From assembly GCA_963656825.1 (NCBI GenBank), contig CAVKJG010000001.1:2059-66058 (forward strand): a stretch of 64,000 bases of DNA, written 5' to 3'. The notes beneath the pieces are model-generated. The model did no database searches, had not been told where the DNA came from, and saw only the letters and a list, made by a program, of their open reading frames with translations. This DNA is from Sphaerochaetaceae bacterium. GTDB lineage: Bacteria > Bacillota > Clostridia > Oscillospirales > CAG-272. This document shows positions 6,204-64,000 of the stretch, one piece after another; the stretch's first letter is position 1, and each line of letters opens with the position of its first letter. Made by a program: the position numbers and the translations under genes.

Positions 6204-8645
6204 TTATTTTGCGGCTTCTATCGCCGCTCCCCTGCCGTGACTTTCCGGCACGGCAATATATTGCTTTTCGCTTTTTTCCCGCGGCAGACTCTTTTTTTCG
6301 TAGGCGAAAGGCTCAGCGCAGAGCGCAAGTCTTGCCGCCTCGTCCGCGTGAGATATGTAGATTATCTCCACATTTTCCTTGACTTCGGGAAGAATTTCTC
6401 CCTCGTCCTTGCGGTTTTCCTCGGGAAGAAGTATCGTCTTTACTCCGGCAAGATATGCAGCCATCGTCTTTTCGCGGAGTCCGCCTATGGCAAGCACTCT
6501 GCCGCGGAGCGTTATCTCGCCCGTCATGGCGATATCGCGCTTCACCGCTATGCCGGTAAGCTCGCTTATCAGCGCCACGGATATCGCAACGCCTGCGGAC
6601 GGGCCGTCCTTCGGAACAGCGCCTTCGGGAAAATGTATATGTATATCTTTCTTTTTGTAAAATTCCGGATCTATTCCGAGTCTTTCCGCGCGCGAACGGA
6701 CAAAGCTTATCGCCGCCTGCGCGGATTCCTTCATAACGTCGCCGAGCATACCGGTAAGCTCCGTTTTGCCCGTGCCTTCAAGCGAAAGCACCTCTATACG
6801 CATTATCTCTCCGCCGAGCTCCGTATATGCCATTCCGCACACCGTCCCGACTTCGTTTTCCGGCAGGATTTTATCCTTTGCCAGCCTTTCCGTGCCGGCG
6901 TAATCGGCAAGATTGCCCTCCGTTATCTTCACGCTCTTTTTCCCGTCGCAGACTATCTCCTTTGCGGCGCGACGACAGCATTTCGCTATCATTCTTTCAA
7001 GCTGACGCACGCCCGCTTCGGAGGTGTATTCGTCTATGAGCGCATAAAGCGCACCTTCGTCGATCTTCATCGTTCTGCCGCTCAGACCGTGACGCTTCGA
7101 CTGCTTTGGAATCAGGTGATGACGCGCTATGGAGAATTTTTCTCCGCGCGTGTATATCTTCATTTCCACTATCTCCATTCTGTCGATAAGCGGCTGAGGA
7201 ACGGTGGAAAGCGAGTTTGCCGTCGTTATGAAAAGACAGTCCGAAAGATCAACCGGCGACTCTATGAAGTGGTCGCGGAAGCTTTTGTTCTGCTCGGTGT
7301 CAAGCACCTCGAGCAGTGCCGACGCCGGATCGCCGTGCGCGTCGCGCGTCAGCTTATCGACCTCGTCCATCAGTATCAGCGGATTCATGCTCTTTGCCTG
7401 AGTGAGCGCGGTTATGATTCTTCCCGGCATCGAGCCTATATACGTCTTTCTGTGACCTCTTATGTCCGCCTCGTCGCGCACGCCGCCCAGAGAAATCCTT
7501 ACGAATTTTCTGTTCATTGCGCGCGCTATCGACGATGCCACCGAGGTTTTGCCCGTTCCGGGAGGTCCGACAAGGCACAGCACCTGATTTTTAAGCTCGG
7601 GATTGAGCTTCTGCGCCGCAAGATATTCCATTATCCTGCTTTTCACGTCGTCAAGCCCGTCGTGATCCTCGTCAAGTATTTTTTTCGCCTGCGGAATGTC
7701 TATTCTGTCCTTTGTCTTTTTGCCGAACGGAATTTCAAGGCAGGTTTCTATATAGTTGCGTATTACTGCGCCCTCAGCTGCTCCGAAAGGCGTTTTTGAA
7801 AGCTTTTTCACTTCTTTTACAAGCTTTTCGCGCATATCCGCGGGAAGCGGCGCTTTCATTACCTTTTCGTAATATTCGGCTACTTCCTCATCGTCGAATT
7901 CTTCATCCTCGCCAAGCTCGCTTTTTATGACCTTAAGCTGCTCGCGCAGATAATAATCGCGCTGATTTTTGTCCATTCTTGAATGAACCTCGCGGTTTAT
8001 CTTCGCCTCCTCGCGCATTACAAGCTTTTCGCTTTCGAGCTTGAGGAGCAGAAGCTCCGCGCGCGACTTGGGATCGAACACTTCGAGCAGCTGCTGACGG
8101 TCGTCAAACTCGGGCAGAATGTTCGCGGCGACAAAGTCGCACAGAAGCGACATATCCCCTATCGAAGCTATCACCGCCGAAAGATCCTTTGAAAATTTCG
8201 GCAAAAGCGATGAAAATTCGGCTACCGTGCTTTTTATGTCGCGCATCATCGCAATGCTCATAACGCCGCCGTCGTCAAAGCTTACGGATTTTTCCAGCGC
8301 TTCGGCAACGAAGTATTTTCCGCTGCGATAAAAATCGGTTATTTCTGCTCTTTCAATCGGCTCGATAAGCGTCCGGTATATTCCGCCGTCGGCTTTTACA
8401 AGCTGTTTTATCTTAGCCGTCACGCCCACGGAATACAGATCCTCCCTTTTCGGTTCTTCAACCGAGGGATCCTTCTGACATACAAGCAAAACAATTCCGT
8501 CCGAAGCGAGCGCCGCGTCGCACGCTTTTTTCGACGCGCTCCTGCCCACTTCGAGATTCATTGCTATTTTGGGGAAAGCGACAGTTCCGCGCATCGCTAT
8601 GCACGGAAGTATCGTTTTCTTTATCATTTCTCTGGTTACAGCCAT
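6204..8645 (-). CDS. lon: ATP-dependent Lon protease (LonA)
   Basis: Walker A GPPGTGKTS, a LonA N-terminal domain, and the catalytic PKDGPSAG serine motif with the downstream Lys region. Confidence 0.97.
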   Translation of the reverse strand: MAVTREMIKKTILPCIAMRGTVAFPKIAMNLEVGRSASKKACDAALASDGIVLLVCQKDPSVEEPKREDLYSVGVTAKIKQLVKADGGIYRTLIEPIERAEITDFYRSGKYFVAEALEKSVSFDDGGVMSIAMMRDIKSTVAEFSSLLPKFSKDLSAVIASIGDMSLLCDFVAANILPEFDDRQQLLEVFDPKSRAELLLLKLESEKLVMREEAKINREVHSRMDKNQRDYYLREQLKVIKSELGEDEEFDDEEVAEYYEKVMKAPLPADMREKLVKEVKKLSKTPFGAAEGAVIRNYIETCLEIPFGKKTKDRIDIPQAKKILDEDHDGLDDVKSRIMEYLAAQKLNPELKNQVLCLVGPPGTGKTSVASSIARAMNRKFVRISLGGVRDEADIRGHRKTYIGSMPGRIITALTQAKSMNPLILMDEVDKLTRDAHGDPASALLEVLDTEQNKSFRDHFIESPVDLSDCLFITTANSLSTVPQPLIDRMEIVEMKIYTRGEKFSIARHHLIPKQSKRHGLSGRTMKIDEGALYALIDEYTSEAGVRQLERMIAKCCRRAAKEIVCDGKKSVKITEGNLADYAGTERLAKDKILPENEVGTVCGMAYTELGGEIMRIEVLSLEGTGKTELTGMLGDVMKESAQAAISFVRSRAERLGIDPEFYKKKDIHIHFPEGAVPKDGPSAGVAISVALISELTGIAVKRDIAMTGEITLRGRVLAIGGLREKTMAAYLAGVKTILLPEENRKDEGEILPEVKENVEIIYISHADEAARLALCAEPFAYEKKSLPREKSEKQYIAVPESHGRGAAIEAAK

Positions 8646-8775
8646 TTCGTTGTCCTTTTTTGAATATATTTTGATTTCCGCTTTCCGCGGAGCATACTAC
8701 TCTAACTTAACTTTGAATATATTATATCACACTGTTTCTATGATTTCCACATATTTATTAAAAATTAACTCTTTT

Positions 8776-8815
8776 GAAACAAAAACGTGCCGCGATATGC
8801 TCGCAGCACGCATTT
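8776..8815 (-). terminator. rho-independent terminator after the TF-like lipoprotein gene
   Basis: The minus strand reads GCGTGCTGCGA-gcatat-CGCGGCACG followed by TTTTTGTTTC. Confidence 0.65.
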
Positions 8816-8816
8816 T

Positions 8817-10262
8817 TTACAGTCCGGGTATCGAGGGGGTGTCCTTCGGCAGCGACGTTTCGCACAGCTTTTCGTTGCAGGTCTGATAAAGGAACTGGAT
8901 TTTGAGCACGTCCCTTGTATATATGCCTTCAAGCTCGCTTGTCGTAAGATTATAGCCGCCGTAGTAGAACAGATACGTCTGAAGATTTGCAAGATCCTCC
9001 TTGTAGTCGCTGTTTGTGTATTCTATTCCGAGCGATTTCTTTACGGCGTGGGTGATGAGCGCCTCCTTTGCGGAAGCCTCCGCGCTCGATTTTATATATT
9101 CGTCTGCGGCTGCCGAGCTTCCGTAAACACGTTTTTTTGCCTCGTCCTCCGATATGCCGTAATTTGATGCCGCCTCGGAGACGGTAGCGGCGACCTCGTC
9201 CTCAAAATATTTTTCGTACTGCGTTATAAGCGACGCCGGATATTCCTTTACGCTTGATTTTTCCACCGTCATATCCATCATTTTGTTTTTCATGTAGTGA
9301 ATCACGCGAAGAGCGTTTTTAAGCTCGTAATAATCGGCAAAATCGGTATTCTGCTTTACCGTTTCGTCCGTGTTGTAAACTTCCTTTACCGTTATGGCAA
9401 ATTCGGCTTCCTTGCCGGCAATCGTGCTGTCGCCATAGCCCGAAGGAAACATTACCTTTATCGTGAATTTATCGCCCGAGCCGTGACCTTTAAGTCCTTC
9501 CTCAAAGCTTTCGAAAAGATATCCGCCGCCTATGCGTATTTTGTAGTCCTCGCCGGAGCCGCCGTCGAATTCCTTGCCGTCTATCGTGCCCTTGAAATCG
9601 AAAACTATCCAGTCGCCGTCCTCGGCTTTGTCCTTTTTGTAGCCGCATTCTTCAAAAAACGCGGATATTTCGGAATATATATCGTCGTCCGTCGTTCCGG
9701 GAAGAACGTCAAGCACCGTAATCGTAAAGCGCACGGACTTCCCCGCCACGCTGTCATCTTCATATGACGACGGGATCGTCATTGTGAAAGAAAACGCCTT
9801 GTCTATGGAAACCTCTCTTTCCGATTCGTAGCTATCTGAGGTATCCTTTATGTCGTAGTGAATTCCGCCGTCAAACTTTTCGTTTGCTACGGTCTTTCCC
9901 ACGCAATAGTTCTCTATGCATTTGTCGTCGCCGTCAAAGCACCAGCTTTCGTAGCGCTTGTAGGAAACGGTCGTCGTCGCGCCGTCCTCTGATGTTTCCT
10001 CCGTTACTATCTCCGCCGTAACGGAAATATCCACGGAAAAACCGTCCTCGACCACAAACGAGGAATCGTTGCTTTTTATTTCTTCGGCATAGCTTTTGCG
10101 GTATTCTTCGTATCTTTTTTCAAAATCGGCGTAGGTGAAGCTGTTGTAATCCGCAAGCTCGACGTATTTTGAAAGGTCCTCCTTGTCATAGTTGAAGCCG
10201 CACCCGCACAAAGCAACGGCAAGCACGGAAAGGAGCATAATAAAACAAACTGTTTTTTTCAT
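8817..10262 (-). CDS. lipoprotein with trigger-factor-type FKBP PPIase domain and TF C-terminal-like domain
   Basis: Signal peptide plus lipobox (LAVALCGCG). GDWIVFDFKGTIDGKEFDGGSGEDY...GLKGHGSGDKFTIKVMFP...IAGKEAEFAITVKEV closely parallels the trigger factor PPIase domain. Confidence 0.75.
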   Translation of the reverse strand: MKKTVCFIMLLSVLAVALCGCGFNYDKEDLSKYVELADYNSFTYADFEKRYEEYRKSYAEEIKSNDSSFVVEDGFSVDISVTAEIVTEETSEDGATTTVSYKRYESWCFDGDDKCIENYCVGKTVANEKFDGGIHYDIKDTSDSYESEREVSIDKAFSFTMTIPSSYEDDSVAGKSVRFTITVLDVLPGTTDDDIYSEISAFFEECGYKKDKAEDGDWIVFDFKGTIDGKEFDGGSGEDYKIRIGGGYLFESFEEGLKGHGSGDKFTIKVMFPSGYGDSTIAGKEAEFAITVKEVYNTDETVKQNTDFADYYELKNALRVIHYMKNKMMDMTVEKSSVKEYPASLITQYEKYFEDEVAATVSEAASNYGISEDEAKKRVYGSSAAADEYIKSSAEASAKEALITHAVKKSLGIEYTNSDYKEDLANLQTYLFYYGGYNLTTSELEGIYTRDVLKIQFLYQTCNEKLCETSLPKDTPSIPGL

Positions 10263-54236: not shown

Positions 54237-54880
54237 TTATTACCGAATGTTCTTTCCGGAAACGCAAAAAAGGCAAAAAGCTGCTTATATCCGTCCTTTG
54301 CGTTTTTCTGTCGGCGCTTTTTATCGTTCTGTATCTGAACAGAAAGCTCGATCCGCTCGTGTGCGATGCGGCAACTCCGCGCCTGAGAGCCGAGATGACG
54401 CGCGTGATAAACGAAGCGGTAAGTGAAGCGATGTCCGGCTACAACGAAAAGCTTATAAGCATAACCTACGGAGCGGACGGGAAAATACTTTCCGTAGAAA
54501 CGGACAGCGTAAAAATAAATCTTCTCCGCGCGCTCGTAACGGAGAAGATAAACGAAAAAATAAAAGAATACGGCGAATACACCGTCACCATTTCCGCTTC
54601 AAACATTATGGACGACGAAATAATTTTCGGCAGATTTCCGTCGTGGCGCATTCCCGCAAGCGTGGAACCGAGCGGCAGCGCGGAAACCACCGTAAAAAGC
54701 TCGCTTACATCCGCCGGAATAAATCAGAGTCTGCATAAAATAGTTCTTTCCGTAAAGGTGAAAGTAACCGCCATGCTCCTTATCTCCACCGTTGACGTCG
54801 AAACCGACACGGATATCTGCATAGCGGAAACCGTAATAATAGGCGAAGTCCCTTCGGTGTTTTTCGGCGGTGAAAATTAA
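54227..54880 (+). CDS. yunB: sporulation protein YunB-like
   Basis: Basic N-terminus plus a TM helix (FRKRKKGKKLLISVLCVFLSALFIV), with YunB-like length and pattern. The only in-frame canonical start is GTG 54227, inside the ispA terminator stem. Confidence 0.55.
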   Translation: MIFIITECSFRKRKKGKKLLISVLCVFLSALFIVLYLNRKLDPLVCDAATPRLRAEMTRVINEAVSEAMSGYNEKLISITYGADGKILSVETDSVKINLLRALVTEKINEKIKEYGEYTVTISASNIMDDEIIFGRFPSWRIPASVEPSGSAETTVKSSLTSAGINQSLHKIVLSVKVKVTAMLLISTVDVETDTDICIAETVIIGEVPSVFFGGEN

Positions 54881-55761
54881 ACTCCCGTATAATCGAAATC
54901 GGGAATAAAGCTTTCCGCGGCGGCGCTTCCCTCCTGAACGTAGGCTGTCGAAATTCCTATCTTATCGGCATAATCTACAATCTTTGAATATTCGTATTTT
55001 GTCAGCTTCCGGCAAAGCTCCGGATAATTTTCAAGGCGCTTTTTGTCCGGCGTGAACTGACTCATTATGCTGAGAATAATATCGTTTCCGTATTCGGAAT
55101 GAAGATAATCCATTACGCGCAGCGAATCGGAAACGCACCCGGGCAAAGCAAGATGCCGCACTATAACGCCTTTTTTCATAAGACCGTCACAAAGCACGGG
55201 CGCACCCTTTGTACGCACCATTTCGGCAAGCGCCTCCTTTGCCCTTTCGGGATAATCTCCCGCCGCCGAATATTTTCCGGCAAGCTCTCCCGACATATAT
55301 TTGAAATCCGTAAGATAAATATCGACCGTTTTGTCAAGCGAAACTATCGTTTCGGCTTTTTCGTATCCGCCGGTGTTCCATACAACAGGCAAGCCGAGTC
55401 CCTTCGCCTTCGCTTCGGCAACGACGCGCTTTATCTGCGGCGAAAAATGCGTCGGCGTAACGAGATTTATATTGTTTGCTCCCTGCGCTTTAAGCTCAAA
55501 GAATATCTCGCAAAGACGCTCATCGCTTACTTCTTTTCCAAGCTCGCCGCGTGAGATTCCGTAATTCTGACAGTACACGCACCGCAGATTGCAGCCCGAA
55601 AAAAACACCGTTCCCGAGCCTTTTTCGCCGGATATGCACGGCTCCTCCCAGAAGTGAAGCGCCGCGCGCGCAAGGCGGACGGTATTTTTCTCGCCGCAAA
55701 AGCCCTTGCCCGTATTTCTGTCGATTCCGCATCCGCGCGGACAGATATCGCATTTTTCCAT
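54877..55761 (-). CDS. radical SAM protein, PflX-like (putative glycyl-radical-activating-enzyme-like)
   Basis: An N-terminal Cys cluster (CDICPRGC) and the CNLRCVYCQN radical SAM motif. Confidence 0.8.
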   Translation of the reverse strand: MEKCDICPRGCGIDRNTGKGFCGEKNTVRLARAALHFWEEPCISGEKGSGTVFFSGCNLRCVYCQNYGISRGELGKEVSDERLCEIFFELKAQGANNINLVTPTHFSPQIKRVVAEAKAKGLGLPVVWNTGGYEKAETIVSLDKTVDIYLTDFKYMSGELAGKYSAAGDYPERAKEALAEMVRTKGAPVLCDGLMKKGVIVRHLALPGCVSDSLRVMDYLHSEYGNDIILSIMSQFTPDKKRLENYPELCRKLTKYEYSKIVDYADKIGISTAYVQEGSAAAESFIPDFDYTGV

Positions 55762-56121: not shown

Positions 56122-56150
56122 TTGACAAGCCGAAATTTATGTGCTACATT
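56122..56150 (+). promoter_or_regulatory. sigma-A promoter of the opp-like operon (TTGACA-N17-TACATT)
   Basis: Hexamers at 56122-56127 and 56145-56150. The leader to ATG 56266 is about 110 nt. Confidence 0.6.
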
Positions 56151-56265
56151 TAATTAAATACTTGCGTAATTTTTTGCCTGCATTACGGTTTCTTTTATTT
56201 TCGGAAACTGCCGCGGCAAAAAAAGCAGCGGATATTGAAAAAATACTATGCAATGGAGGAAAACA

Positions 56266-58827
56266 ATGAAAAAGAAACTCAAACAAATGCTGACGGCAGC
56301 ATTGTGTCTGGTACTTGTGGCAGCTACGTTCATGGGCTGCGGCAAAAAGACTCCCGACGTTGTGCCCGCTACATTCAAGCAGGCTGAATACAACACCACA
56401 ACAGCTACAATGCCCAGCAACTGGAACATGCTCACGTACGTTGACAACAACGATACCCAGATTATGAACTATATTTCTTCTTCGTTCTTTGAATATGACT
56501 ACAAATTTGAGAACGACAAGAAGTACAACGAGGACGGTTCCATCAACAAAGCCGGCATAGTTGCCGGTGCGTACACCACAAACTACTCCGCAGCAACAAA
56601 GCTCGAAGACGTAACATCTTCGGTTGATGCAAAATGGGGCTACACCGACGCTCAGAAGAAAGAGGGCGGCTATGCATGGAAGATCACCTTCCGTGACGAC
56701 CTCAAATGGGACGACGGAACAGCCATCAAGGGCGCAGACTTTGAATATTCCATGAAGCAGCAGCTCGATCCCGCTTTCATGAACTACAGAGCCAACACCT
56801 ACTACGATACGCTTAAGATCAAAAACGCAAAGACCTACTTCTTCCAGAACCAGGAAGGAACCTACGAAACCGTAGGCAGCCTTGGTTATGAAAACAACGC
56901 GGCTGCAATCGCAGACGGCAAAACCATCTACATCGACGTTCACGGCTTCTGGGGTGCTGAAGGCTATGTTGACAAAGACGGCAACGAATGTCCTCAGTGG
57001 GTCAGCATCAACGACGAAACCGTTTACGATACCGCAGACGCATGGACAGCAGGCGCTGCAGCAGACGCTTTCTCCGGTAAAGAGCTGTGGGCAGCTTACG
57101 GCGCTTATCTCGAAGTCGGCGCAAACTATGCAAGCTATGCCGGTATTTACGTTGAGAACAAGGTCCGCAGCGTGAAGTGGGAAGACGTAGGCATTTACGC
57201 CGTTGACGGCGAAAACGCTATCGTTGTCTGCATGGACAAAGCGTTCGCTTTCCTTAAAGAAGACGGTTCTCTCTCTTATCTCGCAGCATACTATATGTCC
57301 AGCCTTCCCCTCGTTCACGAGGCTAAGTACGAAGCTTCAAAGATCGCTCCCGCAAACGGCGCGACTCTCTGGACATCAAATTACAACTCTTCTCTCGCCA
57401 CAACGGCAAGCTGGGGTCCCTACAAGCTCTCCGAGTTTGAAGCAGGCTCTCACTACAAGCTCGTAAAGAACGAAAACTGGTACGGCTGGGGCATGGAAGA
57501 TTTCAAGAACCAGTACAACATCACCGCCATCAACTGCCGCAAGGTTGAAGAATGGGCGACAAGATGGATGGGCTTCCTTAACGGCGACTACGACGACGCT
57601 TCTCTTGCAACCGAGAACGCAGCCGAATATGTAGACTCCAAGTACGTTTACTACACATCCACCGATACCGGCACATTCGGTATGCAGCTTTACAGCAACC
57701 TCAGCGTTCTTAAAAACAGCAAAAACAACAACGGTATTCTTGCAATACCCGAATTCAGACAGGCATTCAACCTTGCGCTCAACAGAAGCGACATCGTTGA
57801 AAAAATCTGGCCCGGCACGGCTATCCCCTGCTTCGGTCTTGTAAACGTTGCTTACTACTATGATATCGAAAACGCTCCTACCCTTGAGGACGGCGGTCAG
57901 TACCGTAACACAACGCAGGCAAAAGAGGGTGTCCTCCGCGCTTACGGATTTACTCAGGGCGCAGACGGCAAGTGGACATCGGGCGACCTCAAGAATCTTG
58001 ATCTTGACGAAGCATACGATTCTCTCACAGGCTACAACCCCACTCTCGCAAAAGAGAGAATGGCAGCCGCTATCGAAGAGCTTACAAAGAACGCCGAAAC
58101 ATACGGCTACGACGCAACAAAGAACATCACTCTTGTTTACGGTTCTTCCGTAGATAACGACAAACAGAGATTCAGAGCAAACTACCTCCAGGACATTCTC
58201 GATGATCTTACAAAGGGAACGGCTCTTGAAGACAAGATTGACGTTGTATTCGACGCATCCGCAGGCTCGAAGTGGTCCGACGCGTTCAGAAGCGGCGAAA
58301 CTCAGATCGGTTTCGGTTACGGCTTCTCCGGCAACGCATTCAACCCCTTTGACATTATCGGCGCATTCGTTAACCCCGACGACAGTCTGAACTACCATAT
58401 GTACTGGGATACTTCCGCTATCGATCTGACTCTCACAATGCCCGCAGGCGACTATGATGGCGCAGGCGAGACAATCACAATGAGCGTTCAGAACTGGTAC
58501 TTCTGCCTGAACGGTCTTGCAGAGAGCGAAGGCGCTGCAAAGACTTACAACTGGGACGCAGGCTACGCTCCCGTTGAAGCAAGACTTATGATCCTCTCCG
58601 CTCTTGAAGAGCTTACAATCAAGGAAAGCCGTTCCGTAATGCTTATCGCATCCTCCGGCGGTTCTTTCCTCGGCGCTAAATTCTCTTACTTCTCCGATGT
58701 TGAAAACGTGTTCATGGGCTTCGGCGGTATCAGATATATGGAAGTCAACTATACTGACGCCGAATGGACAGAATATGTTAAATCTCAGAACAACAACCTT
58801 GAAAGCGAGTACAAGAAGTCCGAGTAA
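56266..58827 (+). CDS. ABC transporter substrate-binding lipoprotein, family 5 (Opp/Dpp-like), unusually large (853 aa)
   Basis: GGAGGA RBS then ATG 56266. Lipobox FMGCG. SBP_bac_5-like pattern with extra segments. Confidence 0.8.
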   Translation: MKKKLKQMLTAALCLVLVAATFMGCGKKTPDVVPATFKQAEYNTTTATMPSNWNMLTYVDNNDTQIMNYISSSFFEYDYKFENDKKYNEDGSINKAGIVAGAYTTNYSAATKLEDVTSSVDAKWGYTDAQKKEGGYAWKITFRDDLKWDDGTAIKGADFEYSMKQQLDPAFMNYRANTYYDTLKIKNAKTYFFQNQEGTYETVGSLGYENNAAAIADGKTIYIDVHGFWGAEGYVDKDGNECPQWVSINDETVYDTADAWTAGAAADAFSGKELWAAYGAYLEVGANYASYAGIYVENKVRSVKWEDVGIYAVDGENAIVVCMDKAFAFLKEDGSLSYLAAYYMSSLPLVHEAKYEASKIAPANGATLWTSNYNSSLATTASWGPYKLSEFEAGSHYKLVKNENWYGWGMEDFKNQYNITAINCRKVEEWATRWMGFLNGDYDDASLATENAAEYVDSKYVYYTSTDTGTFGMQLYSNLSVLKNSKNNNGILAIPEFRQAFNLALNRSDIVEKIWPGTAIPCFGLVNVAYYYDIENAPTLEDGGQYRNTTQAKEGVLRAYGFTQGADGKWTSGDLKNLDLDEAYDSLTGYNPTLAKERMAAAIEELTKNAETYGYDATKNITLVYGSSVDNDKQRFRANYLQDILDDLTKGTALEDKIDVVFDASAGSKWSDAFRSGETQIGFGYGFSGNAFNPFDIIGAFVNPDDSLNYHMYWDTSAIDLTLTMPAGDYDGAGETITMSVQNWYFCLNGLAESEGAAKTYNWDAGYAPVEARLMILSALEELTIKESRSVMLIASSGGSFLGAKFSYFSDVENVFMGFGGIRYMEVNYTDAEWTEYVKSQNNNLESEYKKSE

Positions 58828-59139: not shown

Positions 59140-60147
59140 ATGTACATGTTCAAATACGTTATGAAGCGGTTGGGCTTGATGCTCTTCACATTTTTAATTA
59201 TCTTTACAATGTGTTTTGTGCTTATCAAGCTTCTGCCGATTCCTACAAATGTTCTTCCGGGGCAGGATCCGGAGATCATTATGAAGACACTTGAGGGAAG
59301 AGGTTGGATCACCAACATTCAAAAGGGTGAAAACGGCGTTTATTCCTACGACCGTGTTCCGATACTGTTCCAGTACGGAAATTATATCAAGAGAGTGATC
59401 ACAAAGGGTGACTTCGGTATTGCAACCACCTACGGCGAGTATCTCAATATGAATCTGCGCGAGGTGTTTCTCAGTCACCTTCCCCCCACAATCCTTATAA
59501 ATATTTATTCCACACTTATCGGCGTGCCGATCGGACTTGCCCTCGGCATTCTGGCTGCGCTGAAAAAGAACAAATGGCAGGATCAGCTGATAAACGTCTT
59601 CATTATTTTGCTTATATCTGTTCCTTCCGTCGTGCTGGCTCTTATGATTCAGTATGTATTCTGCTTCAAGCTCGGCTGGTTCCCGCTGACCATGTCAACA
59701 AGTAAAGCGTACTTTACGGCTCCGGTATTTCATTCGATGCTTCCCGCAGTATTTTCGCTGTGCCTCGGCTCGATTGCCGGATACGCACGTTATACGCGCG
59801 CCGAGCTTTCCGAGGTTCTGACAGGCGAATTTATGCTGCTTGCAAGAACAAAGGGACTTACCAAGCGTCAGGCGATATTCCGCCACGCGATGCGCAACTC
59901 CATGGTAGTTATCTTCCCGTCAATTCTTAGCGAATTCGTATCGGTTCTTTCCGGATCGCTTATTATTGAAAAAATGTTCGGCATCAACGGCGTCGGCGGA
60001 CTGTACCTTAACTCTATCACGTTTCAGGATTACGATTTCTTCATGCTGCTGTCCGGTTTCTATACCCTTGTCAGTCTGACGGCGGGTATCGTTATTGACA
60101 TCAGCTACGGTTTCATCGATCCGAGAATCAGAATGGGAGCGAAATAA
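59140..60147 (+). CDS. ABC transporter permease (OppB/DppB-like)
   Basis: MFKYVMKRLGLMLFTFLIIF N-terminus and the EAA-loop region LARTKGLTKRQAIFRHAMRNS. ATG 59140 follows GAGGAG. Confidence 0.88.
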   Translation: MYMFKYVMKRLGLMLFTFLIIFTMCFVLIKLLPIPTNVLPGQDPEIIMKTLEGRGWITNIQKGENGVYSYDRVPILFQYGNYIKRVITKGDFGIATTYGEYLNMNLREVFLSHLPPTILINIYSTLIGVPIGLALGILAALKKNKWQDQLINVFIILLISVPSVVLALMIQYVFCFKLGWFPLTMSTSKAYFTAPVFHSMLPAVFSLCLGSIAGYARYTRAELSEVLTGEFMLLARTKGLTKRQAIFRHAMRNSMVVIFPSILSEFVSVLSGSLIIEKMFGINGVGGLYLNSITFQDYDFFMLLSGFYTLVSLTAGIVIDISYGFIDPRIRMGAK

Positions 60148-60148
60148 A

Positions 60149-61741
60149 ATGGCAACGAATAATGTAAATAATATCGCGAATATTCCTGCGGACAAGTTCA
60201 GATTTGCAACCGGAAGGGATCTCAAGCACGACAGCAAGTTTGACACAAAGCCCGTAAGCTATTTTCAGGGTGCGCTGAAACGCTTCAGCAAAAACAAGGG
60301 CGCGGTCGTCGGAGGCATCGTAATAGCCGTTCTTGCGCTTTTTGCAATCATTGCGCCGTTTTTCACGCCCTTCACTCCGGCATACTACGACATGGTTTAT
60401 GCTTATGTCACTCCCAAATCTCAGCTTTTTGTGGACAGCGGTCTTGATTTCTGGGACGGCTGCAAAACAAAAAACACCAATTACCTCGGCTTTATCAAGG
60501 ATAAGGCTATCGCTGTCGAAACAGGCAGAGAGGTCATTAAGCGCGACGAATACACCGTAAGTGAGGACGGCGCAAATTATTCCTATCGCTACAACACCTA
60601 TTACGGAGTAGGCTTCGGCAAATATAAAATAATTTCTCAAGAAGAATTCGACAACATTCAGAAATATCAGCTTGAAACGGGCAGACAGGTTCTTTATCCG
60701 ATAGTCAAATTCTCCGACAGACCTACGCTTGAAAAGAACAAATACGACGCAAACATCTATTACAAAATGGAGGATCCGAATGCGTCAGTTGTCCGCCCCA
60801 AGCTCGACTACGAGGGAAATATTATCCCGAATTACTGGAAATACGAGAAAAGCTCGGCATCAGGTCTGATACCGGAGTACAACTCTCTCAGAATCGAAGG
60901 CGAGGACGGCATAAAGGAAAACGGCTCCACCTATTACTATGCATACGGCAGAAGAGTAGACGGCGGCATTGAAGTCAGAGCCGAATACTATGAATATTAT
61001 ATCTACAATCACACTCAGATAAAGAAAGACGGCATAGAAGAACCTTTCTTCTTTTTCGGCACGACCGACACCGGCAAGGATATCTTTGCCTGCCTTGCAT
61101 ACGGCGCAAGATTTTCGTTTGTTTTTGCCACAATCGTTGCGGCGGTAAACTTCATTGTCGGCGTTATCTGGGGTTCCATCTCCGGATATTTCGGCGGGAG
61201 AGTCGATCTTCTCATGGAGAGATTTTCCGATATCCTCGGCGCAGTTCCCACGATGATCGTCATTACCCTTCTGAAATATCATATGGGAGCGTCAAGTCAG
61301 GCGCTTGTTCTGTTTATCGCGTTCTTTGCGACGGGGTGGATAGGTATGGCAAGCAGGACGCGTATGCAGTTCTACCGCTTTAAGAATCAGGAATATGTTC
61401 TTGCGGCAAGAACGCTCGGCGCAGGCAATCTGAGAATAATGTTCAAGCACATTTTCCCGAACGGTCTCGGCACGATAGTAACAAGCGTCGCGCTTGTAAT
61501 CCCCTCGATGATCTACTCGGAAACAAACCTTTCCTACCTCGGAATCATCAATCTTGAAGCAGGAAACACAACCAGCGTGGGAACGCTTATTGCCGCAGGT
61601 CAGAAGTCCATTATGGCAGGCGCAGGCTATGTGGCGCTGTTCCCGTGCACGTTCCTTGTTCTGTTGATGCTCAGCTTTAACCTGTTCGGCAACGGCTTGC
61701 GCGATGCGCTGAATCCGTCGCTCAGAGGCTCGGAGGATTGA
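60149..61741 (+). CDS. ABC transporter permease (OppC/DppC-like) with a roughly 225-aa extracytoplasmic insertion after TM1
   Basis: The OppC_N-like start, FGTTDTGKDIF, and the EAA loop AARTLGAGNLRIMFKHIFPN. ATG 60149. Confidence 0.88.
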   Translation: MATNNVNNIANIPADKFRFATGRDLKHDSKFDTKPVSYFQGALKRFSKNKGAVVGGIVIAVLALFAIIAPFFTPFTPAYYDMVYAYVTPKSQLFVDSGLDFWDGCKTKNTNYLGFIKDKAIAVETGREVIKRDEYTVSEDGANYSYRYNTYYGVGFGKYKIISQEEFDNIQKYQLETGRQVLYPIVKFSDRPTLEKNKYDANIYYKMEDPNASVVRPKLDYEGNIIPNYWKYEKSSASGLIPEYNSLRIEGEDGIKENGSTYYYAYGRRVDGGIEVRAEYYEYYIYNHTQIKKDGIEEPFFFFGTTDTGKDIFACLAYGARFSFVFATIVAAVNFIVGVIWGSISGYFGGRVDLLMERFSDILGAVPTMIVITLLKYHMGASSQALVLFIAFFATGWIGMASRTRMQFYRFKNQEYVLAARTLGAGNLRIMFKHIFPNGLGTIVTSVALVIPSMIYSETNLSYLGIINLEAGNTTSVGTLIAAGQKSIMAGAGYVALFPCTFLVLLMLSFNLFGNGLRDALNPSLRGSED

Positions 61742-61743
61742 AT

Positions 61744-63987
61744 ATGAATAAAGAAATTAAGTTATCGGTAAACAATCTGAAGGTCAGCTTCCGGACGGAC
61801 GCAGGCAAGGTGCAGGCGGTACGCGATATCTCGTTCGACCTTTATAAAGGCGAAACTCTGGCAATCGTCGGAGAATCCGGCTCTGGAAAATCCGTTACGT
61901 CAAAAGCCATCATGGGAATTTCCGCTGTGAACTCCATCTACGAGGGCGGAGAAATCCTTTACGACGGTCAGGACCTTCTGCGTATTCCCGAGGAGGAAAT
62001 GCACAAGCTCCGCGGAGACAAGATCGCAATGATTTTCCAGGATCCGCTTTCCTCGCTCAACCCGATTATGCGTATCGGCAAGCAGATAACGGAGGCAATG
62101 CTCCTCAAAAACAAGGCGAACCGCAAGGAAGGCCGCGAAGCCTTCAACAAAATGCTTTCCACGCTGTATGAAACAATAAAGGTAGCTGCCGCAGAAAACA
62201 ATATCACGGATATCTCCATAGAAGAGGTTGAAAAATACATCAAGACCTTCGATGATTTCAACATTCAGGCGATAAAGCTGGAAAACAGCTACAACGAATC
62301 GCGCACGGCGGCTGAGGAAATGATAACCATCATTGAGGATTTTCTCTTCCTTACCGAAAAAAAGCAAAAGGTCGATGTCGTAGCGACCTTAAAGCGCATC
62401 AAAAATCACCTGAAAACTGTCAGCGACAAGTATTTTGTAACCGGATATGAGGAAATTTTGAAGGCTCACAGCGCGTCGCTTGACAGCGCAAAATCGATAG
62501 AAATATCAAAGCTGACAATAGGTGACGCCGCAAAGAAGCTGTTTGCGGGAAACGCGTACAAAAACGAAGCGTCTGCCGAAACAGTCGATGTACTCAAAAA
62601 GATAAAGAAAACAGCCGAAGAAATGCTCGCACGTCCCAAGTACGACTTTTTCAGAATCGGCTACTACGTATACAAGCACCCCGATACCGATCTCAGCCGG
62701 ATGCCCGCTTCCGAAGCGAACGAAATGGCATACGAATATCTCACAGAGGACTTTATGAAGTCCTTTATCGGCTATGAAAGGATCGCGGTTCAGTATTCGC
62801 TCGATAAAACTCTGGAAAACAAGAAAAAGGCTATCGCCGGACTGAAAAAGGCAATAGAATTTTTCAGGGCGGGAAACTTTACCCAGCAGGAAGCAAAGGC
62901 ACTTGCCTATGAGCTGAATCGGGATGTCCGCGCGGCAATCGATCCGCTTGCCGTAGTCAAGGACAACATCGCCTACACCTTCGGCGGAGCGATTGACAGA
63001 GAAATTGAAAAATATTTCTTCTACCTGAAAAACAATCCCAAGGAGGAGGCTCGCTTTGCGCGTCAGACCGCAAAAAGAGAGGCTCTGCTTGCAAAGGGCA
63101 AGAGCGGAAAGAAAGTAAACTGGAAAGTCGTTCCGAAGTCCGTTGTGGAGCCGGAGGATCAGATCCGTATCATCGTTTCCGTTCTTACGCATGTAATGGA
63201 CAAGTTTGAAGCGGACGTTTTATCCGAAAACAAGGTGGACGTCGATAAGCGCTGCATTGATATCATCGACTATCTCAAGGAAAAGGCTTCTCAGGTTGTC
63301 TACAAGCTTACAAAGCGTATCGCAAAGGAAAGAGCCATCAAGCTCATGGACGAGGTCGGTATTCCCGAAGCAAGACTTCGCTACAGACAGTATCCGTTTG
63401 AGTTTTCCGGCGGTATGCGTCAGCGTATCGTTATCGCGATCGCGCTTTCGGCAAACCCCGATATCCTGATCTGCGACGAGCCGACCACCGCGCTTGACGT
63501 TACGATTCAGGCTCAGATTCTTGAGCTTATCAACCGTCTGAAGCGCGAGCGTAATCTTTCCATTATCTTTATCACGCACGATCTGGGCGTGGTCGCAAAC
63601 ATGGCAGACAGAATTGCCGTTATGTATGCAGGTAAAATCGTGGAATACGGCACCGCGGAAGAGGTGTTCTACAATCCGCAGCATCCGTATACATGGGCAT
63701 TGCTTTCCTCCATGCCGGACCTCGACACCGACGAAAAGCTGGATGCTATCCCGGGAACTCCTCCCAATATGATATATCCTCCCGTCGGAGATGCGTTTGC
63801 GGAAAGAAACAGATACGCACTGGAAATAGATTATGAAATGCAGCCTCCGATGTTTGAGGTTTCGCCCACACACTACGCTGCAACATGGCTGCTTCACCCC
63901 AATGCTCCCAAGGTAGAGATTCCGAAAATCATTACCGAGCGAATCAAACGAATGAAGGAAAGAGGAGGCAATTATGGAGAACAATAA
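61744..63987 (+). CDS. ABC transporter ATP-binding protein (OppD-like) with a roughly 400-aa insertion between the Q-loop and the ABC signature
   Basis: Walker A GESGSGKSV, Q-loop IFQDPLSSLNP, then about 430 residues later FSGGMRQR, Walker B LICDEPTTALD, H-loop ITHDL, and an oligo_HPY-like tail. ATG 61744 follows GGAGGA. Confidence 0.88.
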   Translation: MNKEIKLSVNNLKVSFRTDAGKVQAVRDISFDLYKGETLAIVGESGSGKSVTSKAIMGISAVNSIYEGGEILYDGQDLLRIPEEEMHKLRGDKIAMIFQDPLSSLNPIMRIGKQITEAMLLKNKANRKEGREAFNKMLSTLYETIKVAAAENNITDISIEEVEKYIKTFDDFNIQAIKLENSYNESRTAAEEMITIIEDFLFLTEKKQKVDVVATLKRIKNHLKTVSDKYFVTGYEEILKAHSASLDSAKSIEISKLTIGDAAKKLFAGNAYKNEASAETVDVLKKIKKTAEEMLARPKYDFFRIGYYVYKHPDTDLSRMPASEANEMAYEYLTEDFMKSFIGYERIAVQYSLDKTLENKKKAIAGLKKAIEFFRAGNFTQQEAKALAYELNRDVRAAIDPLAVVKDNIAYTFGGAIDREIEKYFFYLKNNPKEEARFARQTAKREALLAKGKSGKKVNWKVVPKSVVEPEDQIRIIVSVLTHVMDKFEADVLSENKVDVDKRCIDIIDYLKEKASQVVYKLTKRIAKERAIKLMDEVGIPEARLRYRQYPFEFSGGMRQRIVIAIALSANPDILICDEPTTALDVTIQAQILELINRLKRERNLSIIFITHDLGVVANMADRIAVMYAGKIVEYGTAEEVFYNPQHPYTWALLSSMPDLDTDEKLDAIPGTPPNMIYPPVGDAFAERNRYALEIDYEMQPPMFEVSPTHYAATWLLHPNAPKVEIPKIITERIKRMKERGGNYGEQ

Positions 63988-64000
63988 CGAAGTGCTTCTT
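63974..64000 (+). CDS. 5' end of the next CDS (probably the OppF-like ATPase), truncated by the window edge
   Basis: GGAGG RBS at 63963-63967, ATG 63974 (MENNNEVLL), and an overlap with the oppD-like stop codon. Confidence 0.45.

Follow-up and report, generated by a model that had tools for sequence, protein, structure and literature searches.

Introduction

The ATPases of ATP-binding cassette (ABC) importers rank among the best-studied molecular motors. In these proteins, the helical subdomain of the nucleotide-binding domain (NBD) transmits the ATP-driven motion to the permease. The solved structures used here for comparison are Escherichia coli OppD (8z21_C), E. coli DppD (8z1v_C), and Mycobacterium tuberculosis OppD (8j5q_D, Rv1281c). 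The same NBD motifs, the same oligo_HPY region, and the same operon context, with a substrate-binding protein (SBP) and BPD_transp_1 permeases, are found for an OppD protein encoded at the 3′ end of a 64,000-nt stretch of DNA (the window) from a member of the Oscillospirales (GenBank assembly GCA_963656825.1, contig CAVKJG010000001.1, positions 2,059 to 66,058). Both halves of its NBD align end to end with the solved OppD and DppD proteins. In contrast with canonical members of the family, 402 additional residues stand between helices α3 and α4 of the helical subdomain, and the cysteines of the [4Fe-4S] cluster are absent. The insertion is a natural experiment on the elaboration of the interface between the NBD and the transmembrane domain (TMD), and may uncover a novel means by which peptide uptake is regulated or stabilized in abundant, little-cultured gut bacteria.

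Enlarged ABC ATPases are known from several other systems. The sole described class of long Opp ATPases belongs to the Mollicutes and is represented by the NCBIfam profiles NF043079 (MMSYN1_0167, OppD of Mycoplasma mycoides syn1, 561 positions) and NF043078 (MMSYN1_0168, OppF, 649 positions). At 561 positions, the OppD profile must be insertion-bearing too, and the likeness lies in Opp ATPases of Firmicutes-derived bacteria that have grown by internal insertions. The topology of the present protein resembles that of SMC, Rad50, and RecN, in which a long helical excursion departs from the helical lobe past the Q-loop and rejoins it ahead of the signature motif. In those proteins, however, two antiparallel strands form a coiled coil that bears a hinge or zinc hook, whereas the insertion in this membrane importer is predicted to be a bundle of 14 helices, several of them short, with turns. 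A Pfam SMC_N match over residues 40-630 of OppD scores 22.6 bits, below the gathering score of 40, and is produced by the split ABC motifs. Grafts on the helical subdomain that move with the ATP cycle and contact a partner include the arm of the ABCF protein EttA and the UvrB-binding and insertion domains in the signature domain of UvrA. These grafts comprise ∼40-150 residues and have the ribosome, UvrB, or DNA as partners, whereas the present insertion comprises ∼400 residues and belongs to a transporter. MalK, MetN, ModC, and OpuA carry C-terminal appendages with β-rich or CBS folds and known ligands, which could gate NBD closure; the domain of this OppD is instead internal and, by structure prediction, all-α.

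Identity of the OppD ATPase

The oppD gene and its motifs are located as follows, with coordinates referring to the whole window and residue numbers to the 749-aa open reading frame (ORF).

61738..63987, forward strand: oppD ORF, open for 749 aa
61744..62100, forward strand: N-terminal NBD part of OppD, with Walker A, Q-loop, and helix α3, ending ...QITEAM121
61870-61893, forward strand: Walker A, GESGSGKS, G45-S52, in the N-terminal half of OppD
62038-62040, forward strand: Q-loop glutamine Q101, in the N-terminal half, within the motif IFQDPLSSLNP (nt ∼62032-62064)
62101..63306, forward strand: insertion, residues 122-523, a predicted 402-aa all-α accessory domain in the α3-α4 loop of the helical subdomain
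63307..63987, forward strand: C-terminal NBD part of OppD, with helix α4, signature, Walker B, H-loop, and oligo_HPY region
63403-63417, forward strand: signature motif, FSGGM, residues 556-560, in the C-terminal half
63463-63480, forward strand: Walker B, ILICDE, residues 576-581, in the C-terminal half
63577-63579, forward strand: H-loop, H614, in the C-terminal half

The probable start codon is the ATG at 61744, which is preceded by a ribosome-binding site (GGAGGA, 61732-61737). The ABC motif set is complete and in order, from Walker A and Q-loop through the signature, Walker B, and D-loop to the H-loop. Pfam ABC_tran (PF00005) matches with 99.6 bits split over two stretches, and oligo_HPY (PF08352) matches residues 635-696 with 51.2 bits (gathering score 27.1). 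The best NCBIfam matches are OppD models, namely the Mollicute profile NF043079 (470.5 bits) and the generic PRK09473 (367.8 bits). Both scores fall below the curated cut-offs of 740 and 575, respectively, a shortfall that is expected since the profiles have no positions for the insertion. The operon supplies a family-5 SBP, the permeases OppB and OppC, and a second ATPase, OppF, in an order that is kept in three related loci (L001, L002, and L083). Judged by sequence, the gene is therefore an oppD in every respect but the curated score cut-offs, and the predicted role of the system is ATP-driven peptide import.

The oligo_HPY region (residues ∼680-720, nt 63760-63900) lacks all four cysteines of the [4Fe-4S] cluster; in the alignment to 8j5q_D, the GCPFAPRC..C..C of the solved chain corresponds to GDAFAERN..Y..T in OppD. 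Reading of the sequence finds a single cysteine in the C-terminal tail of the L001 OppF.

Position and sequence of the insertion

The boundaries of the insertion are set by alignment to the solved M. tuberculosis OppD, in which residues 9-121 of the query correspond to chain residues 5-116 and residues 524-716 to chain residues 123-317. The 402 residues thus stand where the solved protein has a loop of ∼6 residues between helices α3 and α4, a segment that in ABC NBDs goes by the name of ‘structurally diverse region’. The spacing from the Q-loop motif to the signature motif is 458 aa, compared with 59 aa in the OppF partners of related loci. A preliminary description made from the DNA letters alone had placed an insertion of ∼400 aa between the Q-loop and the signature of an OppD-like NBD, at 62080-63355, against a canonical spacing of 55-60 residues. 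Its assignment, site, and size agree with the alignment, and its canonical spacing agrees with the 59 aa of the OppF partners; its coordinates overshoot the insertion by ∼7 residues at the start and ∼16 at the end.

As that description had also noted, the insertion is rich in lysine (12.9%), alanine (10.7%), and glutamate (9.7%). Its isoelectric point (pI) is 8.7. The GC content is 0.41-0.51 over the insertion and 0.50-0.53 in its flanks. Conservation is concentrated in islands at residues 121-130, 171-190 (FDxFNIQAIKLENSYN), 301-310 (DFFRIGYY), and 401-470, with a gappy, variable linker at ∼250-280. The strongest island, 401-470, reads IDPL..KD..AYTF..KYFFY.KNNPKEEARFARQ..KREALLAKGK..V.WKVVPK, and the block 401-471 has a net charge of +6.

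The relation of the insertion to the permease can be judged from the E. coli DppBCDF structure, in which E114 of DppD forms a salt bridge with K243 of the DppB coupling helix (PMC12136057). Alignment to the NCBIfam DppD model equates residues 9-134 of the query with profile positions 4-129, so that E119 corresponds to position 114 and therefore to E114 of DppD. The insertion thus begins three residues past the predicted coupling-helix contact. Of the earlier suggestion that it stands at the NBD-TMD interface, the location in the α3-α4 loop close to the contact is borne out; the insertion is, however, predicted to adjoin the interface rather than to lie in it.

Conservation, distribution, and annotation of the domain

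The insertion is genuine and conserved, and an assembly artefact is excluded. One unbroken frame runs over the N-terminal half, the insertion, and the C-terminal half in all 82 related loci that were fetched, with truncations only at contig ends; the frameshifts or stop codons that would have betrayed a mis-assembly, a concern of the preliminary description, are thus missing. When each GTDB species was represented by a single genome, 409 genomes were found to encode a relative. The top match is Ruminococcus sp. CAG:382; Faecousia comes next, along with many metagenome-assembled genomes (MAGs) from ruminant and human guts, and the carriers listed among the 409 are mostly Oscillospirales gut MAGs. 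A protein search with the insertion alone returned 258 matches; among the 120 listed, those with Pfam domains are ABC-type ATPases, and the matches with source names come from MAGs of Clostridia, Oscillospiraceae, Ruminococcaceae, or Eubacteriales. Pairwise ratios of nonsynonymous to synonymous substitution rates (dN/dS) are 0.07-0.15 for the insertion, compared with 0.01-0.03 for the NBD halves. Purifying selection on the insertion is therefore clear, although the constraint is below that on the motor core.

Many NCBI relatives are entries of 400-406 aa that start within the insertion (P0069, P0090, and P0088). In L001, the NCBI gene at 8001-9221 starts at a methionine inside the insertion and encodes 406 aa, while the full frame at 6990-9221 encodes 743 aa; in L002, the gene start is likewise at an internal methionine, and the upstream DNA belongs to one open frame of 743 aa. 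In both loci, 1 kb of conserved open coding sequence with Walker A and Q-loop is left unannotated, and the short entries of L001 and L002 are therefore mis-called starts. Other listed NCBI relatives of 399-407 aa look as if they share this error, the probable cause of which is that no protein-family model covers the insertion; the short entries as a whole include P0068, P0069, P0073, P0074, P0088, and P0090. A split gene or programmed frameshift was considered and dismissed on the open 743-aa frames of L001 and L002 and the intact frame in the 82 loci. Hundreds of public assemblies already contain the domain, annotated in generic terms or as a truncated protein, and a Pfam or NCBIfam entry for it would correct hundreds of annotations.

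A few relatives depart from the common architecture. In P0028, a frameshift after ARFARQT alters the C-terminus. In P0204 (707 aa), a ∼290-aa OppA-like lipoprotein N-terminus continues in frame into the latter half of the insertion and the C-terminal half of the NBD; its cluster has three members, including P0285 and P0286 (707-722 aa), with the longest contig at 93 kb, and the protein looks like either an oppA-oppD deletion fusion or an assembly chimera. P0187 (897 aa), a distant low-GC member, carries an extra low-complexity C-terminal tail of ∼180 aa rich in N, S, Q, and K.

Predicted fold and family searches

AlphaFold2 was applied to the insertion alone with an alignment of 13 sequences. 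The model is all-α, with a mean predicted local distance difference test (pLDDT) score of 88 and a predicted template modelling (pTM) score of 0.74, and contains 14 helices, three of which span 39-55 residues. The model supports the earlier expectation that the insertion would fold as an independent helical domain. In a full-length AlphaFold2 model, the insertion retains a pLDDT of 80-94, and an unbroken helix covers residues 113-153, in which the modelled NBD helix α3 runs straight into the first helix of the insertion. The NBD halves are poorly modelled in this prediction, and the orientation of the insertion relative to the NBD is unreliable. In both models, pLDDT is low for loop 453-471 (GK..V.WKVVPK), although the loop is strongly conserved. 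Conservation combined with low pLDDT is the expected appearance of a site that becomes ordered upon partner binding, and the loop is accordingly a possible interaction site.

The preliminary description had recognized no motif in the insertion but had allowed that homology searches might identify a known accessory domain. No such identification emerged. Searches with the insertion gave nothing significant in Pfam (best E value 0.078) or NCBIfam (1.2) and no match in PADLOC; a defence-system ATPase was dismissed on the PADLOC result, in which only the generic ABC halves match and nothing in the insertion does. Among PDB sequences, the best E value was 0.2 for the insertion and 0.3 for the A2 profile. 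Foldseek comparison of the insertion model gave a best E value of 0.11 against the PDB, with TM scores of at most 0.24, and 0.065 against the viral folds of BFVD. The insertion of P0239, a low-GC distant member, found no relatives in a word-indexed database, and literature searches found no paper describing the domain. A comparison of the first and second halves of the insertion with hhalign (probability 2.4%) gives no sign of an internal duplication. The domain is thus uncatalogued, with no sequence or fold match in Pfam, NCBIfam, PADLOC, the PDB, or BFVD.

An exhaustive hidden Markov model (HMM) search of 1.84 billion representative proteins recovered 253 clusters with the domain. Among the full-length matches listed with a domain start, the domain begins at residues 117-127 of a protein of 690-900 aa, and the 13 such proteins that were fetched are OppD-like, except for the oppA-fused P0204. 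The family appears to be dedicated to one site of one protein, OppD.

The OppF partner and a conserved six-gene module

The oppF gene is cut by the end of the window; the partner ATPase was surveyed in L001 (9211-10350), L002 (9202-10485), and 70 further loci. The OppF proteins of these relatives carry a helical insertion of their own, rich in K, E, and A, of 37-106 aa in discrete length and deletion variants. It is located before the Q-loop and extends the spacing from Walker A to the Q-loop to 90-159 aa, compared with the usual 53. An hhalign comparison of the OppD and OppF insertions gives a probability of 0.3% and no homology. The idea that OppF might carry an insertion matching that of OppD, raised in the preliminary description, thus fails; the OppF insertion is shorter, unrelated, and at a different site.

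Directly 3′ of oppF, 73 of the 82 loci encode a protein of ∼140 aa with four transmembrane (TM) helices that matches Pfam DUF3899 (29.5-35.8 bits; gathering score 23.4). The nine loci in which the gene is missing are attributed to contig ends. Its positions in three loci, which correspond to DNA beyond the 3′ end of the window, are as follows.

L001, 10357-10782: DUF3899 gene
L002, 10490-10912: DUF3899 gene
L083, 11326-11754: DUF3899 gene

The distant member P0093 (locus L083), with an insertion only 40% identical, keeps the same six genes, encoding an OppA of 843 aa, OppB, an OppC of 524 aa, an OppD of 704 aa, an OppF of 404 aa with its insertion, and a DUF3899-like protein of 142 aa. From gene content and order, the operon is a conserved six-gene module of oppA, oppB, oppC, oppD, oppF, and a DUF3899 membrane protein, the last of which is a possible additional, sixth subunit of the importer.

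Proposed role of the insertion

The most likely role of the insertion is putatively that of a coupling or regulatory arm. In E. coli DppBCDF, a turn of the helical subdomain by ∼20 degrees separates the inward-facing from the outward-facing state (PMC12136057). Helix α3 is continuous with the insertion in the model, so the insertion would have to move with the power stroke. It could be a rigid arm in the cytoplasm, carried back and forth by the helical subdomain during the ATP cycle. The conserved basic block 401-471, together with the invariant GK..V.WKVVPK loop, would then bind a partner, for which the candidates are the helical hairpin of OppF, the cytoplasmic loops of OppB, OppC, or the DUF3899 protein, and the anionic face of the membrane. 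Such a contact would stabilize or gate NBD closure and the coupling of OppD to OppB, a role like the one that regulatory domains play at the C-terminus of MalK or MetN, but exerted from within the NBD. As a whole, the explanation that OppD of an ‘expanded’ Oscillospirales importer carries a lineage-conserved helical accessory domain acting as a coupling or regulatory arm is given an even chance of being correct.

Several observations weigh against the arm. The OppD insertion is nearly constant in length and that of OppF is not, an observation that speaks against the two fitting each other strictly one to one. The insertion evolves 5-10 times faster than the NBD core, a rate that is also compatible with a structural or spacer role. 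A DUF3899 gene is also found within the oppA-oppBCDF-tldR operon of Enterococcus faecalis (bioRxiv 10.64898/2026.09.22.753285), and the association with DUF3899 may consequently not be specific to systems with the insertion.

A broader proposal is that the OppD insertion, the pre-Q-loop hairpin of OppF, and the DUF3899 protein define an ‘expanded’ class of Opp importers and together gate or regulate transport as a helical apparatus. Such an apparatus might sense a cytoplasmic signal or lock the NBD dimer. The proposal is speculative and judged quite improbable; if true, it would give type-I ABC importers a new principle of regulation, based on a new fold.

Alternative explanations

The alternative that survives best, though still unlikely, is a structural brace or spacer that stabilizes the OppBCDF complex, for example by offsetting the lost [4Fe-4S] cluster, and has no regulatory role. 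According to PMC12136057, the Dpp complex of E. coli, where DppD and DppF carry the cluster, and the Opp complex of M. tuberculosis depend on it for their assembly. Its four cysteines are replaced in this OppD, and only one C-terminal cysteine is present in the L001 OppF; the faster evolution of the insertion and its variable linker are what a brace would tolerate. The insertion, however, stands opposite the C-terminal cluster domain in the NBD sequence, and the strong conservation of the charged loop speaks for a specific interaction more than for bulk. Many Opp and Dpp ATPases without the cluster cysteines are not known to carry such an insertion, which would also count against a brace. If the domain were merely a lineage-specific brace, it would be of local interest to structural biologists of ABC transporters.

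If the domain instead served to dock a client in the cytoplasm (a peptidase, a signaling protein, or a nucleotide second messenger, for example), it would couple import to processing or sensing. The predicted domain offers a large, surface-exposed helical surface with conserved patches, and the binding of EIIAGlc and MalT by MalK is a precedent for NBD-attached domains that bind regulators. In the operon, however, no conserved extra gene for a cytoplasmic protein is seen; the genes past DUF3899 differ among L001, L002, and L083, and neither Foldseek against the PDB nor Pfam recognizes a ligand-binding fold. Docking is thus a decidedly weak candidate relative to a coupling or regulatory arm.

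Descent from a Mollicute-type long OppD has some appeal, as NF043079 outscores the generic OppD model (470 compared with 368 bits) and the OppF proteins of the relatives match the Mollicute OppF profile NF043078 best (∼410 bits). The OppF insertion even occupies the same site as the insertions of Mollicute OppD and OppF. For OppD, the site is different. Residues 9-78 of the query map to positions 2-71 of NF043079 and residues 86-135 to positions 298-347, so that the ∼225 extra Mollicute positions precede the Q-loop and the profile is continuous where the present insertion stands; in NF043078, the corresponding mapping is 2-71 and then 392-435. The Mollicute insertions thus separate the ‘ILYDG’ strand from the Q-loop strand (profile positions ∼72-297 in OppD and ∼72-391 in OppF), whereas the present one follows the Q-loop. 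NF043079 does not match this insertion or two distant ones at E ≤ 10, NF043078 does not match this insertion either, and the whole-protein score of NF043079 stays under the cut-off. Homology to the Mollicute OppD insertion was dismissed on the site mapping and the absent profile match, and a diverged Mollicute-type OppD is very unlikely. By profile mapping, the site of the insertion differs from that of the Mollicute class.

A selfish or foreign element that the cell removes or tolerates, for example an intein or a gene captured from a mobile element, is more improbable still. The insertion is large, stands at a conserved site of a P-loop ATPase, where inteins are frequently located, and is K-rich and basic in a manner unlike the NBD. 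However, it matches no Hint, intein, endonuclease, or transposase family, its predicted fold is all-α rather than the β fold of Hint domains, and its junctions (EAM|LLKNK and YKLTK|RIAKE) lack the Cys, Ser, or Thr and His-Asn residues of splicing. It also occupies one fixed site across the 409 species under purifying selection, and its GC content is unremarkable.

An assembly or annotation artefact, whether from a chimeric contig or from two genes fused by a frameshift, has next to no probability: the many NCBI relatives that start inside the insertion and the frameshifted P0028 would suit it, but the open upstream frames of L001 and L002 with Walker A and Q-loop, and 82 loci from independent assemblies that are unbroken save at contig ends and show a dN/dS of ∼0.1, leave it hardly any room.

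Other features of the operon

The opp operon closes the window on the forward strand, with oppA, oppB, oppC, oppD, and the first 26 nt of oppF. Apart from oppD, its genes are located as follows.

56248..58827, forward strand: oppA, 859-aa family-5 substrate-binding protein and predicted lipoprotein (PF00496 SBP_bac_5, 93 bits)
∼59140..60147, forward strand: oppB permease (PF00528), start approximate
∼60146..61741, forward strand: oppC permease, with OppC_N at residues 55-100 and BPD_transp_1 at residues 356-544 of a 548-aa ORF
63975..64000, forward strand: start of oppF (MENNNEVLL...), cut by the window end and with the same start as the L001 OppF

OppA, OppC, OppD, and OppF are all larger than their textbook counterparts, and the enlargement thus extends to the extracellular parts of the system (OppA and OppC). 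OppA, at 859 aa, is far above the typical size, and its SBP_bac_5 match is confined to residues 376-704; its N-terminus, MKKKLKQMLTAALCLVLVAATFMGC, looks like a lipoprotein signal. The gene is also the first of the operon in L001, L002, and L083. The oppB ORF is open from 58888, while the OppB proteins of relatives comprise 323-335 aa (335 aa in L001 and L002), and the NCBIfam Opp3B alignment begins at residue 87 of the long ORF. OppC has ∼210 additional residues between the TM helix of OppC_N (TM1) and the permease core; its start is inferred from relatives of 532-538 aa that begin MA.NN.

No structured RNA or riboswitch was found in the window by Rfam. A σ70-like promoter match (TTGACA-17-TACATT, with an extended -10 TG) is located at 56122-56150 on the forward strand, ∼100 nt 5′ of the oppA start; overall, the region holds no more promoter-like sites than shuffling leads one to expect. 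Also 5′ of the operon, a gene on the reverse strand at 54877-55761 encodes a protein of 294 aa with the motif CNLRCVYCQN, which presumably recalls the CxxxCxxC motif of radical-SAM proteins.

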